DNA from: Pyrolobus fumarii 1A
GTDB lineage: Archaea > Thermoproteota > Thermoprotei_A > Sulfolobales > Pyrodictiaceae
Length of the DNA: 32,000 nt
Reading direction: 5' to 3'
Assembly (NCBI RefSeq): GCF_000223395.1
Contig: NC_015931.1
Span: 570,001-602,000 of the forward strand
In this document: piece by piece, positions 35-8,309 of the stretch
Numbering within the stretch: position 1 is the first letter of the stretch
Layout of the letters: each line of letters opens with the position of its first letter
Notes under the pieces: model-generated
Database searches by the model: none
Seen by the model: the letters and a program-made list of their open reading frames with translations, nothing else
Told to the model about the DNA's origin: nothing
Translations under genes and position numbers: made by a program

Positions 35-643
35 ATGAAACCTTGGGTTTCGAATGTTGTGAAGGAGCGTATGGACTATGCACAGCTTGACGATAAAGTC
101 TACATCGAGAGAGTTCTACGGAACTTATCAATGACTTACAACAAATGGATTAATAACCTCGCTAAAGGCTTTGCTCGAGCTATCGCCGAGGTGCTTGGTG
201 CTGAGATACGCTGGAAGAATTTAACGGAGACTGAAGATGCAAGTGAGTTCGAAAGGGGTAAACCGGACTGCAAGTATCTCATCTCCAACCTGTTCTTCAG
301 ACTGCATAGGAGGGCCCTCCTAACCTCACTATACTTTGACATGCTCTACATCTGTTTCAAGTTCAACACTGAAATCTTCAACGAGACCGTACTGAGGATC
401 ACTAAGAGAAGAGCTGCCGAGATGGGACGTTACGCAATCAGAGCATGCGTAGAAAGCACAAACCCTCGCTGTGCTCTTAGCACTGCACTTGACGTCTTCA
501 ACCACTATACTCTAGACGCCTGCAAGAGGTACATAGAGCAAGCACAGACACTGGCAACCCGATACTCGGAAATGCTATATGCAATGCTAACCCATGCAAC
601 CCGCCTGCTAAGGGAACACTATGGCTGCGAAGTCTTCTACTAG
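35..643 (+). CDS. hypothetical protein with no recognisable domain; possibly 5'-truncated by the window edge
   Basis: 202-aa ORF with a non-repetitive, helical-looking sequence. In-frame codons from position 2 to 34 contain no stop, so the true start may lie upstream of the window. Convergent with the TOPRIM-like gene. Confidence 0.45.
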   Translation: MKPWVSNVVKERMDYAQLDDKVYIERVLRNLSMTYNKWINNLAKGFARAIAEVLGAEIRWKNLTETEDASEFERGKPDCKYLISNLFFRLHRRALLTSLYFDMLYICFKFNTEIFNETVLRITKRRAAEMGRYAIRACVESTNPRCALSTALDVFNHYTLDACKRYIEQAQTLATRYSEMLYAMLTHATRLLREHYGCEVFY

Positions 644-778: not shown

Positions 779-1321
779 CTAAGGTGATGTTAACCACCTT
801 AAACAGTCTAGATACTTGTCAAAATCGCGTTCCCCTATGAGAATCTTGACGTCGATACGAGGGGCTAGCTTGGCTAGCATTCGCTTCTCGTAATATGAGT
901 TGAGGAGTCTCTGTATAGCTTGTACCGGGTCTCTTCTGCAGATGCGCCTGTCACCTCCAAGGCCTATGCAGAGCCACGCTTCGTGCATGGGTTCGACTGT
1001 CACAACACGGATGTAATCAAGCTCATCTCTTCTAAAGTGCCTCCTTACAAAGTAGTCGGGAGCGTCTGGCTTTCCCTCTGAATCGATAACCACCAGAATT
1101 CTCCATGGACTACCGGCAACAATGGCTCTAGCGTGGTTCGCCATGGCGGGATTGCACTTCTTTGCAGGTAGGCGTCGAATACGTGGCTTGTGAGTCCTGA
1201 TGTTCTCACATAACGATTCGATCTTGAGCTTTCTGCTCTCGCATAGTTCTATCAGCTTGTTTATAAGCGTGCGATGAAATGTTACACCATAAGTGTCCTC
1301 GACTAGTATTAGGCGCTTCAA
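779..1321 (-). CDS. small TOPRIM-like (DUF4276/OLD-C-terminal-like) putative nuclease, partner of the upstream ATPase
   Basis: 180-aa ORF with a TTG start 4 nt after the ATPase stop codon. Acidic motifs are in TOPRIM order: LILVEDTYG (Glu8), ILVVIDSEG (Asp80/Glu82), VEPMHEAWL (Glu110/Glu114). Family assignment is by eye only. Confidence 0.6.
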   Translation of the reverse strand: MKRLILVEDTYGVTFHRTLINKLIELCESRKLKIESLCENIRTHKPRIRRLPAKKCNPAMANHARAIVAGSPWRILVVIDSEGKPDAPDYFVRRHFRRDELDYIRVVTVEPMHEAWLCIGLGGDRRICRRDPVQAIQRLLNSYYEKRMLAKLAPRIDVKILIGERDFDKYLDCLRWLTSP

Positions 1322-1325
1322 GGTC

Positions 1326-2660
1326 TTAACCCCCGGTCTCGTGGTATATCACATAGTCGCTAAGGAGTATACCTTCACGTGCGAGAGTCTCACGCAGCTT
1401 CTGCGGGTCTGGTAGCCTCGAGGCTGTCGTGCCCTGCGCCTCCCTCTTCACTACAATGACATCCTCCGGGTCGACGAGGTCTACTGGTATCGGAGAGTGC
1501 GTCGCGACTATAACCGGTATTTGTAGCGAGTCAAGCTCGTCAACGAGGTACTCTAGCATCTTTGCATGGAGGCTATTTTCTATCTCGTCAATGAGTAGCA
1601 GCGTCGGGTTAAGCTCTATAGCGGCAAGTATCGCAAGCAGTTTTACGAGACCATCCGGCATGTTGGGGGGCGGTAGCCTAAGCCCATTCTCGGTGGCTAC
1701 CAGCGCGACTCTCCCAAACCCCGTTTCCACTTTCACGCTACAACCCGGGAATAGTTCACGTAGCGCATCCGCTATTCTCTCAGGGAGTGCACCCCTTTCC
1801 GCAATCAAAGTGAGGAGTACCTCCGCGAGGTTACGCGCCCTCACATCGAGCCTCTTTGCACCAGTGAAGGGTCTCGGCTCGCCTATTGCTGCGATATCAG
1901 GGTGTTTGAGCATAACTATGCCACTCAATATCCTAACGATGTGCGAGAATAGCATCATGAGAGATGGGGCCGTATAAGAGTAGCCTATGGGACGTCTGCA
2001 TGAGCTGCCCTCCTCCGGCACTACAAACACCACACGCTTCTCGCTCCACATTAAACGAAGCTCACAGCGCCACAAGCTCCCCCGCATACTACAATACTGT
2101 TGTAATGGCATCCTCCAGGGTATGAGCGGACGTGGAGCCCTCCACTCGATCTCGGTTACAATCCATTCATCCTCCCTCCGGCCTTTTACACCCGCCCTCT
2201 CCGCGACATCATGTCTAGTGTATGTTTTAACCCTATCAGTACTAACCTCGAGAACCAGACTATCATCTAACATGATACGATGCTCGACCGGATATAGCGT
2301 GTCACCAGCCTCGTCGTACGCGAAAGTCACCATGTACTCGAGCTTGTTGACGCTACAGGCTCCTCCTTCGACCCGGTACACGTCAATGGAGAGGCCAAGG
2401 CGAAGTGGCGTGGTAGGGTCACGCTGGTATAACAGGTCGAGAGCCGACCAGTATAGCGGCGCATGTGGGCGGTAAGGTATAGAGTCCGCCTCGTCCACTA
2501 GCGCATGCCGTAGAAAGTACAATGCCTCAAGAATGTTGCTTTTACCAGCTGCATTTGCACCCACGAGTATGTTTAGACCAGGATTTAGCGTTAAACTAAG
2601 ATGTTTTATCGACTTGAACCCTTGTATCGTGAAGCTCCGAATGAACGCATAGTATCTCAC
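1326..2660 (-). CDS. SMC/RecF/OLD-style ABC-type (AAA_21/AAA_15-like) ATPase
   Basis: 444 aa with a GTG start. The N-terminus FTIQGFKSIKHLSLTLNPGLNILVGANAAGKSN contains Walker A. After a roughly 290-aa insert come MPDGLVKLL (signature-like), LLLIDEIENSLH (Walker B/D-loop) and VATHSP (H-loop). Confidence 0.85.
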   Translation of the reverse strand: MRYYAFIRSFTIQGFKSIKHLSLTLNPGLNILVGANAAGKSNILEALYFLRHALVDEADSIPYRPHAPLYWSALDLLYQRDPTTPLRLGLSIDVYRVEGGACSVNKLEYMVTFAYDEAGDTLYPVEHRIMLDDSLVLEVSTDRVKTYTRHDVAERAGVKGRREDEWIVTEIEWRAPRPLIPWRMPLQQYCSMRGSLWRCELRLMWSEKRVVFVVPEEGSSCRRPIGYSYTAPSLMMLFSHIVRILSGIVMLKHPDIAAIGEPRPFTGAKRLDVRARNLAEVLLTLIAERGALPERIADALRELFPGCSVKVETGFGRVALVATENGLRLPPPNMPDGLVKLLAILAAIELNPTLLLIDEIENSLHAKMLEYLVDELDSLQIPVIVATHSPIPVDLVDPEDVIVVKREAQGTTASRLPDPQKLRETLAREGILLSDYVIYHETGG

Positions 2661-3117
2661 GGTTCGAGGCCCACAGGTTAAGACACAAGCCAGCCCCTAA
2701 TCCAGGCTAGCCTTTACCATCTTAAGCCTCCACCGCTGGAAAATACGCCAACCTATGGCCGCAACTACCTGGCATCTTGGAAGGCCTCGGAGGCTCTAAC
2801 GCTTCTACGCTCACCCCGACAGAGCTTCTGGGAGAGCTGAGACGAGGCGGGTTGAGGTGCTCGCCCTTTGTAGCTCTGGATAAGAGGGGTGGTCCACACG
2901 CACGCACCATAGGCTCGCGGAGCATTTTGAGTAGATAATCCAGGCGAGGATGTGAGAATGCTCTACACGCTCATGGGTTAAGAGTATTGAGGAGGCGCAT
3001 GTAAGGGTGGAGGACTGCCTCGATGGAGTACTGGCAAGGTTGCTCATAGAGGAGCATGACGTTGAGACCAATGCACCTTGTCATGTGTTGGCCCCGCCGC
3101 TAATACTCATCACCCTC

Positions 3118-3143
3118 TACCCGCTTTAGGCCAAAAGCGGGTA
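3118..3143. promoter_or_regulatory. perfect 10-bp inverted repeat (tacccgcttt-aggcca-aaagcgggta) ending 8 nt before the ATG at 3151
   Basis: Read directly from the sequence. The arms are exact reverse complements with a 6-nt loop. Function (operator, 5'-leader hairpin) is unknown. Confidence 0.35.
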
Positions 3144-3150
3144 CGGCAGG

Positions 3151-3849
3151 ATGAGCGACACGAGGAGCGACTATAGGCTGCTGGTGGCTGAGCACGCCGT
3201 TTCGCTCCTCGAGGGTATCGTGAGGGGTAGGAGGATACCGGCTCCCATAGACTGGGAGGAGGCTGCGCGGCTATTGCGCGAGGCTCGGGGGATAGTGAAG
3301 AGGATGCGGTTTAGCTTCATGCCCGCGACGATGCTAGCTAGGAGCCCGGATGCCAAGAGCCTACAGGAGATCGCCAAGAGGCTCGTGGATGTGGTGTTGC
3401 CGCGCGAGTGGGTGGAGAGGCTGCGTGGAGACCAGCGCGCGAGGATGCCGATAGCTGAGGCGCGGTACGCTATACGCACGCTCTATACGCTCCCGGCTCG
3501 CCTCGCGCTAGGCGACGATAACAACCCGCTGTATGCTGTTGACATCGAGTGCGTCCGTATAATCACGGTATCCAAGATAAGGGGTGCGGAGAGGCTCTAC
3601 GTGACCAAGGCTCAGGGTACCCTCCCGTACACGATAGTCACGAACATCCAGGATGTCAAGCAGGGCGAGGTGAGAGCCGCGGCCGTGCTACCACCACGCG
3701 AGTTCATGGGGTATATCAGCGAGGCAATGTACTGTAGTAAGCCGCTGCAAGACTGCCAGGTGGGCAAGAGACCCTCGCCAGACCAGGTAGAGAAGGGAGA
3801 AGTGACACGCATCGTGTACGAGATAGCAGCGCAGGTACCCGGCAGCTAG
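3151..3849 (+). CDS. predicted RNA-binding protein with a C-terminal tRNA-binding (EMAP/CsaA/Trbp111-like OB-fold) domain, COG2517-like
   Basis: 232 aa. The C-terminal segment IITVSKIRGAERLYVTKAQGTLPYTIVTNIQDVKQGEVRAAAVLPPREFMGYISEAMYCS follows the tRNA_bind pattern (h-P-x-A-x-x-L-Y-V ... I-V-T ... G-x-x-V ... S-E-G/A-M). The N-terminal half is helical and unassigned. Confidence 0.7.
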   Translation: MSDTRSDYRLLVAEHAVSLLEGIVRGRRIPAPIDWEEAARLLREARGIVKRMRFSFMPATMLARSPDAKSLQEIAKRLVDVVLPREWVERLRGDQRARMPIAEARYAIRTLYTLPARLALGDDNNPLYAVDIECVRIITVSKIRGAERLYVTKAQGTLPYTIVTNIQDVKQGEVRAAAVLPPREFMGYISEAMYCSKPLQDCQVGKRPSPDQVEKGEVTRIVYEIAAQVPGS

Positions 3850-5640: not shown

Positions 5641-6912
5641 TCAGTAACTTTGCGATAGTTTTGCTAGCTCTTTTGCTATTTTGTTAAGTTCCTTTGCTGT
5701 TTCACCGACTCTCTTGGCTATCTCTAAGAGTTGCGGCGGCGCTATACTCGTAAAGATATCGGATAACCTTTTATATATTAGTTTGTAGACTTCGTCCGCG
5801 TTTGACCTCGTGGCTTTCTCGCCTACCTCGATTACGAAGAATCCGTCTGCCTCAGCCACTTCTTTAGCCGGTCTAGACATGGACTTGACAACAAGTATTC
5901 TTAGATGTGGAACCTCTTGGAGGTTGAACACCCTGCCAAACTCTTCATCGACAACAGACCTATCTACATCTCTATTCCAGTTCTTGCATGACACGTAGAC
6001 CTTGAACCTTGTATCGCTAATGCGCTTCTCAGCCCACACATCAACCTCTATAGCAGCACCTCTCCTGGCAGCCTTCCGGACATTAACCCAGACCTGGAAC
6101 CCAAGAGCCCTTAGAGCCCGTGCAACAACATGCTCCAAATCTTCACGTGCACGTATAACCCCTGATGTCACATCCGAAATTGATGACGGAGAAAACTCTG
6201 CTTCATCGTCAGACCTTTCTTCGCTCATCTTGACGTGTTGCGACCATTCATCTAATGTTGCAAGGGAGAAAAACGCTGGAAACAACATGAATTTGCGGTA
6301 GTGATGTCTTCTTGAAGACCACTCATACCCTACACCTATACCCATTGACTGCAAAAGTCTCTCGACATTGAATGCCGAGTCAACTTTGAACAATTCTTTC
6401 AATTTGAACTCTCCTACTGCAAGTGCCAAAGGTGCTTCCTCTGTTGCTTCTAGTTTAAGACCGTAGATTCTGTTTGCATATTTTATCAGGAGATTCCTGA
6501 GTTCAATTATGGCTCTTCTTGTATTGTCATTAGCATTATTTATAATAGCTTTTAGCTTGTCAAGGTGTAACTTTGCAGCATACACGCACCGGCTGCTAAG
6601 TATATTCTCGATAAAAGCTTTGACTTTGTCAGCGACTTTATTTGACTCCCACGGTAGATTACATAGGAAGTTTAAATATGCTTCTAGAATGTCACGTAAT
6701 TGGTCAATGGCGCTCTTTGCTTGGTTTTCGCTAAAACCAAGACCCTGGATAACTTCTTTTAAATTATACAGGAAAGACGAGGTTTCTTCTTTACTTGGTC
6801 TACCTTCTTCATGATAAAGAAATAAAAGCGTAAAGTACGCCGATAGTTTTTCGACATCATCAGCACCTTCAACACAAAGTTTTGCTAGCCTTTCTAAGGT
6901 ATTCGTATACAT
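5641..6912 (-). CDS. Mrr-like (PD-(D/E)xK restriction-endonuclease-fold) domain protein with a large unassigned helical N-terminal domain
   Basis: 423 aa. Residues about 255-365 read LEHVVARALRALGFQVWVNV..AAIEVDVWAEK..FKVYVSCKNW..ILVVKSMSRPAKEVAEADGFFVIEVGE, which resembles the Mrr_cat core. The N-terminal 250 aa have no recognised motif. There is a coiled-coil-like C-terminal tail. Confidence 0.75.
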   Translation of the reverse strand: MYTNTLERLAKLCVEGADDVEKLSAYFTLLFLYHEEGRPSKEETSSFLYNLKEVIQGLGFSENQAKSAIDQLRDILEAYLNFLCNLPWESNKVADKVKAFIENILSSRCVYAAKLHLDKLKAIINNANDNTRRAIIELRNLLIKYANRIYGLKLEATEEAPLALAVGEFKLKELFKVDSAFNVERLLQSMGIGVGYEWSSRRHHYRKFMLFPAFFSLATLDEWSQHVKMSEERSDDEAEFSPSSISDVTSGVIRAREDLEHVVARALRALGFQVWVNVRKAARRGAAIEVDVWAEKRISDTRFKVYVSCKNWNRDVDRSVVDEEFGRVFNLQEVPHLRILVVKSMSRPAKEVAEADGFFVIEVGEKATRSNADEVYKLIYKRLSDIFTSIAPPQLLEIAKRVGETAKELNKIAKELAKLSQSY

Positions 6913-7287: not shown

Positions 7288-7848
7288 TTGCCGAAGCTTA
7301 GGCTGACCCGTTGGGGGTATGCTAGTGGCCGTGTGTTGGAGGCGCTTCTAGAAGCTCTTCTAGCATTGAGCTTTCTCGATATGGGCTACACTCGTAACGC
7401 TGCTGGCAAGGCATTCCAAGCCTGGAAGGCGTTGACGGCTGCAATACTGGCGTTGGAGAAGGACAGGTTGGAGAAGCTGCTATCCGAGAAGGAGAGGAAG
7501 TGGTTGGAGACGAAGGGTGTCCCTTGGGTGCCCACCAGCAGCCTCAAGCCCCTATCGCAGCTATTGGAGGAGAAGGTAGGCTACAAGTACTTCTCATTCT
7601 ACACGGATAAGGCGCTAGACCTGCACACTTACCAGTACCAGGGGCCGGACCCGGAAAGACTACTATCGAAACATGCCAGCAGGGAGGAGGCTGCCACCGA
7701 CACGTTACTGCTGCTAAAGGTGCTAATAGAACTCATAGAGGAGAAGGTCAAACCCAGACTCCAACAAAGGAATCTATGGCTACCAGACCATGAAAAGGCG
7801 TTACAGCAGCTGAAGCAAAAACTAACACCGGGAAAACAACAAGCCTAG
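7288..7848 (+). CDS. PaREP1-like archaeal protein (four-helix-bundle family)
   Basis: 186 aa with a TTG start. The segment LEALLALSFLDMGYTRNAAGKAFQAWKALTAAILALE resembles the PaREP1 N-terminal signature as I remember it. Confidence 0.6.
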   Translation: MPKLRLTRWGYASGRVLEALLEALLALSFLDMGYTRNAAGKAFQAWKALTAAILALEKDRLEKLLSEKERKWLETKGVPWVPTSSLKPLSQLLEEKVGYKYFSFYTDKALDLHTYQYQGPDPERLLSKHASREEAATDTLLLLKVLIELIEEKVKPRLQQRNLWLPDHEKALQQLKQKLTPGKQQA

Positions 7849-8231: not shown

Positions 8232-8309
8232 TGGTGGGCCCGCGGGGATTTGAACCCCGGACCTCCGCCGTGTGAGGGCGGCGTCCTAACCAGGCTAGAC
8301 GACGGGCCC
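8232..8309 (-). tRNA. tRNA-Val (anticodon CAC), CCA encoded, no intron
   Basis: Minus-strand sequence GGGCCCGTCGTCTAGCCTGGTTAGGACGCCGCCCTCACACGGCGGAGGTCCGGGGTTCAAATCCCCGCGGGCCCACCA. Fold: 7-bp acceptor stem GGGCCCG/CGGGCCC, D stem GUCU/GGAC, anticodon stem CCGCC/GGCGG with loop CUCACAC, T stem CGGGG/CCCCG with loop UUCAAAU. Confidence 0.95.

Follow-up and report, generated by a model that had tools for sequence, protein, structure and literature searches.

A two-gene ABC-ATPase and DUF4276-like module in the hyperthermophilic archaeon Pyrolobus fumarii, a candidate ATPase-gated nuclease defence operon

What could be the function of a compact operon in which a gene for an ATP-binding cassette (ABC) ATPase is followed, a few nucleotides (nt) on, by a gene for a hypothetical protein of 180 amino acids (aa)? 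This question is raised by the genes Pyrfu_0624 and Pyrfu_0623 of Pyrolobus fumarii 1A, which lie close to one end of the 32,000-nt stretch of its genome (NC_015931.1, positions 570,001 to 602,000) that was analysed here and that is referred to as the window; coordinates are positions in the window unless another contig or locus is named. No mention of either gene was found in the papers searched. An earlier note, made from the letters of the DNA, had taken the pair for a split OLD-like defence candidate. In our view, the pair is, with high confidence, an ABC-ATPase plus DUF4276-like module of the HEC-01 type, and we lean towards the overall reading that it is an ATPase-gated nuclease defence operon of the type of HEC-01, AbiL or Mad3-Mad4, with a PARIS-like organisation and a shorter effector. 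The earlier proposal holds in the type of the ATPase, the conservation of the acidic residues, the co-conservation of the two genes and their variable context, but the architecture as such is already catalogued, as HEC-01 in the PADLOC database. The pair is a new, divergent archaeal branch of a catalogued and functionally unproven type, and not a new kind of system. The two genes and the junction between them are as follows:

1326 to 2660, minus strand: Pyrfu_0624, ABC ATPase gene, 444 aa, GTG start, AAA_21/AAA_15 type, HEC-01A-like
779 to 1321, minus strand: Pyrfu_0623, gene for a small DUF4276-like protein, a putative TOPRIM-type nuclease, 180 aa, TTG start
1319 to 1334, minus strand: operon junction, with a G-run at 1334-1330, the TAA stop at 1328-1326, a spacer at 1325-1322 and the TTG start at 1321-1319

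The ATPase and the small protein

The product of Pyrfu_0624 matches AEM38493.1 exactly, under the database name ‘SMC domain protein’, and that of Pyrfu_0623 matches AEM38492.1 exactly, under the name ‘hypothetical protein’. Both open reading frames (ORFs) had been placed correctly, as the ORF list and the letters of the junction agree: on the coding strand it reads ...ACC GGG GGT TAA GACC TTG AAG..., so that the TTG start lies 4 nt after the TAA stop. The run of five G (1334-1330) is found 9-13 nt before the start of Pyrfu_0623 and, going by its letters, could be a Shine-Dalgarno-like site for the operon-internal gene. The sequence motifs that had been quoted for the two proteins are all there, and all of them fall in invariant alignment columns.

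Pyrfu_0624 belongs to the ATPase families that had been expected for it, and matches both AAA_21 (3.5e-24, 86.9 bits, cut-off 27) and AAA_15 (1.1e-15, 58.6 bits, cut-off 32.1) above the Pfam gathering thresholds. The best of its 151 matches in PADLOC is HEC-01A (PDLC04178; 5.1e-30), followed by PDC-M25A, AriA (1.2e-24), mad3 (3e-21), AbiLi (9e-20), Old, PtuA and GajA, with the Old and GajA models at about 1e-15 to 1e-17. The NCBIfam model MAD3 is also matched (2.9e-19), at 69.5 bits and thus far under its 420-bit cut-off, and the SMC_N, RecF and Rad50 models match over ~45 residues around the P-loop only, far under the family cut-offs. A search of 5.8 billion proteins returned 115 relatives at E <= 1e-10; those with a name are mostly from Thermoprotei (Ignisphaera aggregans, Vulcanisaeta, Desulfurococcales and Sulfolobales), and the weakest named matches include Candidatus Caldarchaeum and a Nitrospirae bacterium. 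The elements of the ATPase, as seen in an alignment of 45 homologues and in the AlphaFold2 model, are:

2538 to 2561, minus strand: Walker A motif (P-loop) GANAAGKS, residues 34-41, with G34, N36, G39 and K40 invariant
1584 to 1655, minus strand: ABC signature (D336-G337 in MPDGLVKLL) to Walker B (LLLIDE, D358-E359)
1497 to 1499, minus strand: H-loop H388 (in VATHSP), with H388, S389 and P390 invariant
1941 to 2420, minus strand: hypervariable all-beta insert, residues 81-240, predicted strands of low identity

In the region of the signature and Walker B, the columns D336, G337, K340, D358, E359, E361, S363 and H365 are invariant in the same 45 homologues. Since Walker A, the signature, Walker B and the H-loop are all preserved without exception, Pyrfu_0624 is predicted to be an active enzyme and should be catalytically competent. 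The AlphaFold2 model of the ATPase is of high quality, with a predicted local distance difference test score (pLDDT) of 93.7 and a predicted template modelling score (pTM) of 0.93; it contains no coiled coil anywhere, and residues ~86-229 are made up of beta strands only. With homologues, the stretches 1-80 and 241-400 share 40-70% of their residues, whereas the insert at residues 81-240 shares 10-26%, contains insertions and deletions, and is left out of many tblastn matches. The ATPase is, therefore, a conserved ABC motor joined to a hypervariable beta domain of ~160 aa, which we propose as a putative sensor or partner-binding domain. The ~290-aa unassigned insert of the earlier note is reduced by this to ~160 aa (81-240), the remainder being conserved segments of the ABC head.

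Structural comparison of the ATPase model with the PDB by Foldseek identified PtuA of Septu and retron systems (7e-13), the OLD protein of Thermus (6p74; 8e-12), GajA, and the heads of SMC and Rad50 proteins. These matches all have a probability of 1.00 and E values of 7e-13 to 1e-10, with template modelling (TM) scores of 0.4-0.6 when normalised to the target; normalised to the query they reach only 0.4-0.48, so that the structural match covers the head only. AriA, PtuA, GajA and OLD oligomerise through a coiled-coil or helical insert; the model has no such insert, and the mode of assembly of the Pyrolobus ATPase may therefore differ.

The small protein, Pyrfu_0623, has 20 core relatives in a word-indexed search, at 39-91% identity, none of which carries a Pfam domain. 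In their alignment, the residues E8, D9, G12, F15, H16, P52, C56, V78, D80, E82, H113, E114, W116, C118 and C128, among others, are invariant. An exhaustive hidden Markov model (HMM) search of 1.84 billion representatives returned 201 proteins at E <= 1e-3 and 34 at E <= 1e-30, and the family is therefore small, with its core limited to Thermoprotei. The more distant relatives found by HMM search, which we refer to as the second tier, are 160-170 aa long, and 60 of them were aligned. The three motifs of Pyrfu_0623 that could form a metal site are:

1295 to 1300, minus strand: E8-D9 at the position of the TOPRIM Glu, C-terminal end of beta1; unchanged in all 20 core members, with a conservation of at least 90% in the second tier
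1076 to 1084, minus strand: D80-S-E82 at the position of the TOPRIM DxD motif, here DxE, end of beta3; D80 and E82 invariant in the core, DADG in the second tier
974 to 985, minus strand: H113-E114-A-W116, after beta4, with the ExW motif common to DUF4276; invariant in the core

In the AlphaFold2 model (pLDDT 91.3, pTM 0.88), the elements of Pyrfu_0623 follow each other in the order beta1(2-7)-alpha-alpha-beta2(47-50)-alpha-beta3(73-80)-alpha-alpha-beta4(104-109)-alpha, after which comes a helical C-terminal region. The acidic motifs occur in the TOPRIM order that had been read from the sequence, with E8 and D9 after beta1, D80 and E82 after beta3, and E114 after beta4, all invariant in the core, and this placement corresponds to the layout of the metal site in RNase M5, OLD and DUF4276/RloB (PMC12065111). 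The HEAW motif aligns to EIEEW in the second tier and to the invariant ELEAWL of true DUF4276 proteins. The topology (that is, the order of the secondary-structure elements), the placement of the motifs and remote homology favour a TOPRIM fold for the predicted structure. By Foldseek, the model matches TOPRIM proteins, namely retron Eco2 (query TM 0.47), RNase M5 and PARIS, only weakly, at E 0.16-0.64; the match to the PARIS complex 8ux9 is non-significant. An alignment of vvDADg of the family with TDADh of topoisomerase is likewise non-significant and was not used as evidence.

The ties of the small protein to described families are found mainly through its relatives. Among the 20 core members, 12 match the PADLOC model mad4 (best 4.1e-07), five match HEC-01B (best 3.7e-05) and three match Pfam DUF4276, the last weakly (E >= 0.13). 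No match to DUF4435 or AriB was obtained with Pfam or PADLOC for Pyrfu_0623 or any family member, none to AbiLii for Pyrfu_0623 or the core members, none to RloB for Pyrfu_0623, and the HEC-01B model of PADLOC does not match Pyrfu_0623 at E <= 1. In the second tier, the consensus of which is EDtYG...CN.K...IIIvvDADG...H.P...EIEEWIC...KPS...YEK..LP...sF..FL..L, 20 of the 60 aligned proteins match DUF4276 at E <= 0.1 (best 2.2e-06), 23 match mad4, at least 12 HEC-01B (best 7e-07), 10 RloB and four AbiLii; one member, P0053, scores 25.7 bits against DUF4276, under the gathering threshold of 30.2 bits. Core and second tier align with each other over their full length (hhalign, 99.96% probability, E 3e-39). 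As a reference for true DUF4276, we used the partners of the best plasmid matches of the ATPase, namely WP_015338142.1 of Anabaena cylindrica pANACY.05 and its Calothrix homologue, which are above the Pfam threshold (50.8 and 48.3 bits). The second-tier HMM scores 16.0 and 13.4 bits on these two proteins, versus at most 7.7 bits on 1000 shuffles, and hhalign of the second tier with 33 true DUF4276 proteins gives 92.9% and E 3.8e-07 over 159 columns, with the beta1 acid, the beta3 Asp, ExW and the C-terminal F..F matched to each other. DUF4276 and RloB have been placed in the Toprim superfamily (PMC12065111; PMC10440598; Payne et al., bioRxiv 10.1101/2024.01.29.577857), and an OLD metal site has been reported for DUF4276, RloB and HEC-01B proteins (PMC12065111; bioRxiv 10.1101/2024.01.29.577857). 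Pyrfu_0623 and the 20 core members are all below the 30.2-bit threshold of Pfam DUF4276. Judged by these profile comparisons, Pyrfu_0623 is a divergent relative of DUF4276, mad4 and HEC-01B that falls outside DUF4276 as defined by Pfam. The earlier note had expected DUF4276, DUF4435 or Toprim_OLD for the small protein; it is DUF4276-like by remote homology, has no Pfam match of its own and does not belong with DUF4435.

The core is further marked by a set of Cys and His residues: C56, C118, C128, H16 and H113 are invariant and H95 is nearly so, and the conservation of C56 (in the CN.K motif) and H95 extends, almost without exception, to the second tier. From its conservation, the Cys/His set of the core could be a zinc site, a disulfide typical of hyperthermophiles, or part of the active site.

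Co-occurrence and genomic setting of the pair

When 185,579 species were scanned, each represented by one genome, 24 loci were identified, all of them scattered within Thermoprotei: in Desulfurococcales, Pyrodictiaceae, another Pyrolobus sp., Acidilobaceae, Thermoproteus sp. CP80, Thermofilales and Vulcanisaeta distributa. The two genes are co-conserved: in 30 of 31 loci, a homologue of the ATPase (35-56% identical) lies directly upstream of the small gene and in the same orientation, and the remaining locus is cut by a contig end. The distance from stop to start ranges from -20 to +38 nt, with several 4-nt overlaps. In 16 intact pairs, the pairwise divergence of the ATPase heads is correlated with that of the small proteins (Mantel r = 0.81, p = 2e-4), a pattern that fits inheritance of the two sequences as a unit. 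The same pairing of an ATPase gene with a small gene is found for relatives of the second tier in a WOR-3 bacterium and an Archaeoglobales archaeon, and because the former is bacterial, the family crosses the boundary between archaea and bacteria.

The flanks differ between genomes and are not of a housekeeping kind; a conserved housekeeping context in all relatives, such as a DNA-repair operon, would have spoken against the defence proposal in the earlier note. One locus (L001; GCA_054027675.1, JBPMJU010000014.1, 3923-16531) is a dense defence island and carries on one side an Mrr_cat gene and a gene for a fused, 610-aa ATPase-TOPRIM protein of the OLD family, and on the other side a large DEAD/Helicase_C gene together with genes for McrC and an McrB-like protein. 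Elsewhere, the flanks are miscellaneous metabolic genes (L003), genes for an ABC transporter, MazE and an AF2212-like protein (Ignisphaera), a glycosyltransferase island with PaREP1 and DUF4258/DUF2283, or the end of a nuo operon on one side and HerA on the other. The second-tier pair of the candidate division WOR-3 bacterium (L035; JBDRVH010000055.1, 1-7161) lies ~2.4 kb from Cas3 and Cas5d. The closest relative, from a metagenome-assembled genome (MAG) of an uncultured Desulfurococcales archaeon (L007/L008; CAZTIR010000072.1, 1244-6634), is the only one that shares a flank with Pyrolobus: its neighbouring gene for a tRNA-binding-domain protein is 97.8% identical, and the small protein only 90%. 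In this genome the pair, with its ATPase split over three reading frames, is followed by an adaptation module of clustered regularly interspaced short palindromic repeats (CRISPR), Csa1-Cas1-Cas2-Cas4, at the position of which Pyrolobus has a 350-aa orphan ORF and VapBC. Some of the loci are defence islands, and the pair is accessory in character, with foreign composition and variable flanks.

In about nine of ~27 distinct loci, one gene of the pair contains a frameshift or an internal stop. Isolate genomes are among them, with a frameshift in the ATPase gene of Thermoproteus sp. CP80 (L012, 4524-5991) and in the small gene of Vulcanisaeta distributa JCM 11216 (L030, 6001-6446); these two are either true pseudogenes or sequencing errors.

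Around the genes of the true DUF4276 reference proteins, a further arrangement was observed on cyanobacterial plasmids. On pANACY.05 of Anabaena cylindrica (L038, 1-6316) and plasmid4 of Calothrix (L039), the gene of a large DNA methyltransferase runs into the beginning of an AAA_21 ATPase gene; 2 nt downstream of the latter comes a bona fide DUF4276 gene and, after it, an integrase gene. This is a MADS-like or mobile three-gene set, and its DUF4276 subfamily has W-D-L in place of DxD.

In Pyrolobus itself, the pair stands out by its composition, as noted before: the fraction of guanine and cytosine (GC) is 0.483 in the small gene and 0.529 in the ATPase gene versus 0.604 at positions 9000-32000 of the window, and at third codon positions (GC3) it is 0.52 and 0.57 versus 0.67-0.80 in five neighbouring housekeeping-type genes. 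With this foreign codon composition, the two-gene operon is horizontally acquired. Att-like direct repeats or a duplicated tRNA-Val fragment were not found around the pair, and the repeats that were seen are short, present in two copies and at chance level. No Pfam match to a methyltransferase was found among the neighbours within ~9 kb. On either side of the operon lie:

2661 to 3150, no strand: intergenic region of 490 nt between the divergent ATPase operon and tRNA-binding-domain gene
35 to 643, plus strand: orphan ORF, C-terminal 202 of 350 aa, running past the start of the window; GC 0.470

The intergenic region, first described as an ORF-free gap, is real and contains only short ORFs of a mechanical list; no Rfam family was found in it at the gathering threshold, and it is a presumed promoter region. 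Two directly adjoining inverted-repeat arms of 25 nt, 76% complementary, are located at 3106-3155, over the start-codon region of the tRNA-binding-domain gene (3151-3849), and may represent a hairpin with a regulatory role or a match by chance. The orphan ORF, which is convergent with the small gene, is present as the earlier note said, except that the edge of the window truncates it, so that only the C-terminal part of a 350-aa ORF (L004, 4907-5959) lies inside. Neither Pfam nor PADLOC assigns it to a family. Shortly after it, outside the window, a VapBC-type pair of PIN and MazE genes was observed. Because of the GC content of the 350-aa ORF and the VapBC-type pair beyond it, the accessory low-GC segment reaches beyond the edge of the window.

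A further gene of deviating composition is found on the other side of the tRNA-binding-domain gene. At 5641-6912, on the minus strand, a 423-aa protein is encoded with an Mrr_cat restriction-endonuclease domain at residues 257-355 and an N-terminal half without assignment; the gene has the lowest GC content in the window (0.424, GC3 0.40) and no PADLOC match, adjoins a PaREP1 gene (7288-7848) and tRNA-Val (8232-8309), and looks like a nuclease gene that was acquired separately.

Known systems and rival explanations

The system most similar to the Pyrolobus pair is HEC-01 (PADLOC ‘Hma-embedded candidate 01’), in which HEC-01A, an ABC ATPase, is paired with HEC-01B, a small TOPRIM protein; the two systems agree in their two-gene architecture and in the order of the genes, and HEC-01A has a beta-rich Insert 1 as does Pyrfu_0624 (bioRxiv 10.1101/2024.01.29.577857). 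In contrast to HEC-01, which was found embedded in Hma, the Pyrolobus pair is not part of an Hma system, and the Thermoprotei-restricted core differs by DxE for DxD and by an invariant Cys triad. AbiL of Lactococcus (AbiLi ATPase and AbiLii RloB/TOPRIM) is likewise bicistronic, with a small TOPRIM-type protein that stands alone beside the ABC ATPase, and is an abortive-infection system, experimentally shown as such and grouped with PARIS (PMC13064643). AbiL is bacterial and plasmid-borne, whereas the Pyrolobus-type pair is archaeal and chromosomal and was not found in plasmid or phage collections. Membership in AbiL was rejected: AbiLi matches the ATPase at 9e-20, but AbiLii matches neither Pyrfu_0623 nor the core.

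PARIS shares with the Pyrolobus pair the split into an ATPase (AriA, of the ABC type) and a TOPRIM protein (the DUF4435 nuclease AriB). In PARIS, the AriA scaffold senses a phage protein and releases AriB, which cuts tRNA (PMC11464382). AriB is a DUF4435 protein of ~35 kDa, whereas the Pyrolobus partner is DUF4276-like with 180 aa, and AriA has a coiled-coil hexamerisation insert where that of Pyrfu_0624 is all-beta. PARIS membership was thus rejected, with no AriB or DUF4435 match for a protein of this size or its family, in line with the earlier remark that the pair is not simply PARIS. In MADS, an ATPase (Mad3) is combined with a DUF4276 homologue (Mad4), and mad4 is the model that the small-protein family matches most often (12 of 20). 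MADS is an eight-gene operon defined by MAD6-8 and a methyltransferase, with both mad3 and mad4 needed for defence; MAD6, MAD7, MAD8 and the methyltransferase are not near the pair (~9 kb), and with 69.5 bits versus the 420-bit cut-off for MAD3, membership was rejected as well. The OLD family, including GajA of Gabija, has the same two catalytic modules, but fused in one polypeptide, and contains an OLD-like_TOPRIM domain (PF20469) and a helical dimerisation insert, whereas the pair has a putative TOPRIM of the DUF4276 type and is without the helical insert. A fused OLD protein of class 1 or 2, such as P2 Old or GajA, was rejected for two ORFs with a stop codon and 4 nt between them. Proteins of Pfam DUF4276 (PF14103), for example WP_015338142.1, have ~200 aa, are encoded directly after an AAA_21 ATPase gene and have the ExW motif and the C-terminal helical region in common with Pyrfu_0623; the cyanobacterial motifs are FECGP and WDL versus VEDTYG and DSE in Pyrfu_0623. 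A defence role and a nuclease activity of the pair are inferred.

Several observations weigh against a nuclease-based defence operon. The one HEC-01 system that was tested in Escherichia coli did not protect this host from any of the phages (Payne et al., bioRxiv 10.1101/2024.01.29.577857). For the small protein, Pyrfu_0623 alone has no match in Pfam or NCBIfam and, in PADLOC, one to mad4 at E = 0.006 only; the direct comparison of the core-family profile with that of DUF4276 is not significant, and it is the two-step chain via the second tier that succeeds; PDB sequence searches with Pyrfu_0623, the core profile and the second-tier profile gave noise only; Foldseek of its model found no significant match (best E 0.038 in the PDB and 0.045 in BFVD); and the second Asp of the DxD motif is replaced by Glu in all 20 core members. 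For the pair, PADLOC models gave no match among the Pyrolobus neighbours within ~9 kb, and no copies of the small protein were found on viral contigs (IMG/VR pattern scan) or in phage and plasmid collections (tblastn). The Mantel correlation could be due to simple co-inheritance and is no proof of a physical interaction, and many of the frameshifts are in MAGs, in which assembly errors may inflate the count.

Other explanations were weighed against this reading. The pair could be a selfish, toxin-antitoxin-like addiction module, in which a TOPRIM toxin and an ATPase antitoxin are kept by post-segregational killing or drift without antiviral benefit. Such a module would account for a pair that is patchy in distribution, compositionally foreign and often decayed, and for the lack of defence by HEC-01; NetFlax counts AAA (D29) proteins among the antitoxins, with RloB/TOPRIM proteins as their toxins (PMC10440598), and VapBC-type genes lie near the pair in Pyrolobus, in Ignisphaera and in L033. 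However, searches of plasmids and viruses, the typical home of addiction modules, gave no copy of the pair, some loci are in defence islands, and the hypervariable insert resembles a diversifying recognition surface, for which a plain antitoxin has no need. Toxin-antitoxin and defence functions are also not exclusive, PARIS being both (PMC11464382; PMC13064643), and we regard a purely selfish module as unlikely. A different view is suggested by the best matches of the small-protein family, which are mad4 and HEC-01B, by the discovery of HEC-01 inside Hma systems and by the large DNA methyltransferase gene that immediately precedes the ATPase-DUF4276 pair on cyanobacterial plasmids: the pair could be the orphaned sub-module of a larger methylation or restriction system (Mad3/Mad4 of MADS, Hma-embedded HEC-01, or RloAB in type I restriction-modification), useless without its partners. 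Yet no methyltransferase, MAD6-8 or other PADLOC family is present among the Pyrolobus neighbours, and the pair is the sole conserved unit in ~27 distinct Thermoprotei loci with unrelated flanks, which argues for a stand-alone function and makes an orphan improbable.

Equally improbable, in our judgement, is that the small protein has no catalytic activity and serves as an adaptor, or as a metal- or redox-binding regulator that acts on the ATPase through its invariant Cys and His residues, with the ATPase as the real effector. The change of DxD to DxE, the single Asp that true cyanobacterial DUF4276 retains at the beta3 motif and the lack of a significant structural match to any TOPRIM enzyme would fit such a role, and C56, C118, C128, H16 and H113 hint at a metal or disulfide site of their own; against it stand five invariant acidic residues exactly at the positions of the TOPRIM metal site, the canonical DADG that the second tier retains, and the OLD metal site reported for the related DUF4276, RloB and HEC-01B proteins. 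The name ‘SMC domain protein’, the matches of the N-terminal P-loop region to SMC_N and RecF models and the Foldseek matches to SMC and Rad50 heads point to a housekeeping pair for DNA repair or chromosome maintenance, made up of a RecF/Rad50/SMC-like ATPase and its cognate nuclease. The SMC_N and RecF matches are, however, confined to ~45 residues around Walker A and lie far under the cut-offs, and the ATPase has no coiled coil; the pair is found at only 24 loci in 185,579 species genomes, scattered in Thermoprotei, with foreign composition, unrelated flanks and frequent disruption, including in two isolate genomes. Rejected as an SMC/RecF housekeeping pair for its distribution, composition and context, the operon is most unlikely to serve such a function.

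Proposed mechanism and significance

In the proposed model for an ATPase-gated nuclease defence operon, the ATPase would form an oligomer that binds the small nuclease and keeps it inactive, in analogy to PARIS and to the pairs of ATPase antitoxins and TOPRIM toxins described by NetFlax (PMC10440598). The variable insert of the ATPase would recognise a virus- or plasmid-derived trigger, upon which ATP binding or hydrolysis would release or activate the nuclease. The latter would then cut nucleic acid (RNA/tRNA or DNA) in a metal-dependent manner, and the invader or the infected cell would be stopped. A more far-reaching version, which we put forward tentatively and consider possible rather than probable, is that the Thermoprotei clade works, in hyperthermophilic Crenarchaeota, as an abortive-infection system against viruses or plasmids, active up to ~113 °C in Pyrolobus, with the beta insert as the sensor of the invader and a minimal TOPRIM nuclease of 180 aa as the effector, in which a DxE metal site would be combined with an extra Cys/His centre (zinc or disulfide). 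If this were true, it would be the smallest known ATPase-gated TOPRIM effector and would give a first functional proof to the HEC-01/DUF4276 class, the function of which has so far been demonstrated nowhere, and the extra Cys/His centre would be a feature not described for DUF4276, RloB or AriB.

The pair fits the existing picture and leaves its concepts unchanged. It adds an archaeal, hyperthermophile-specific branch to the class of immune modules made up of an ABC ATPase and a nuclease, a branch that is currently missed by Pfam and, in its small protein, nearly missed by PADLOC. With its compact size, confident AlphaFold models and a thermostability that is presumed from the growth temperature of the host, it is a convenient object for the biochemistry and structure of an ATPase that would gate a minimal TOPRIM nuclease. 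Crenarchaeal defence repertoires beyond CRISPR are poorly charted, and the alignments of the core and the second tier could seed HMMs with which defence-finding tools would detect this clade in Crenarchaeota.

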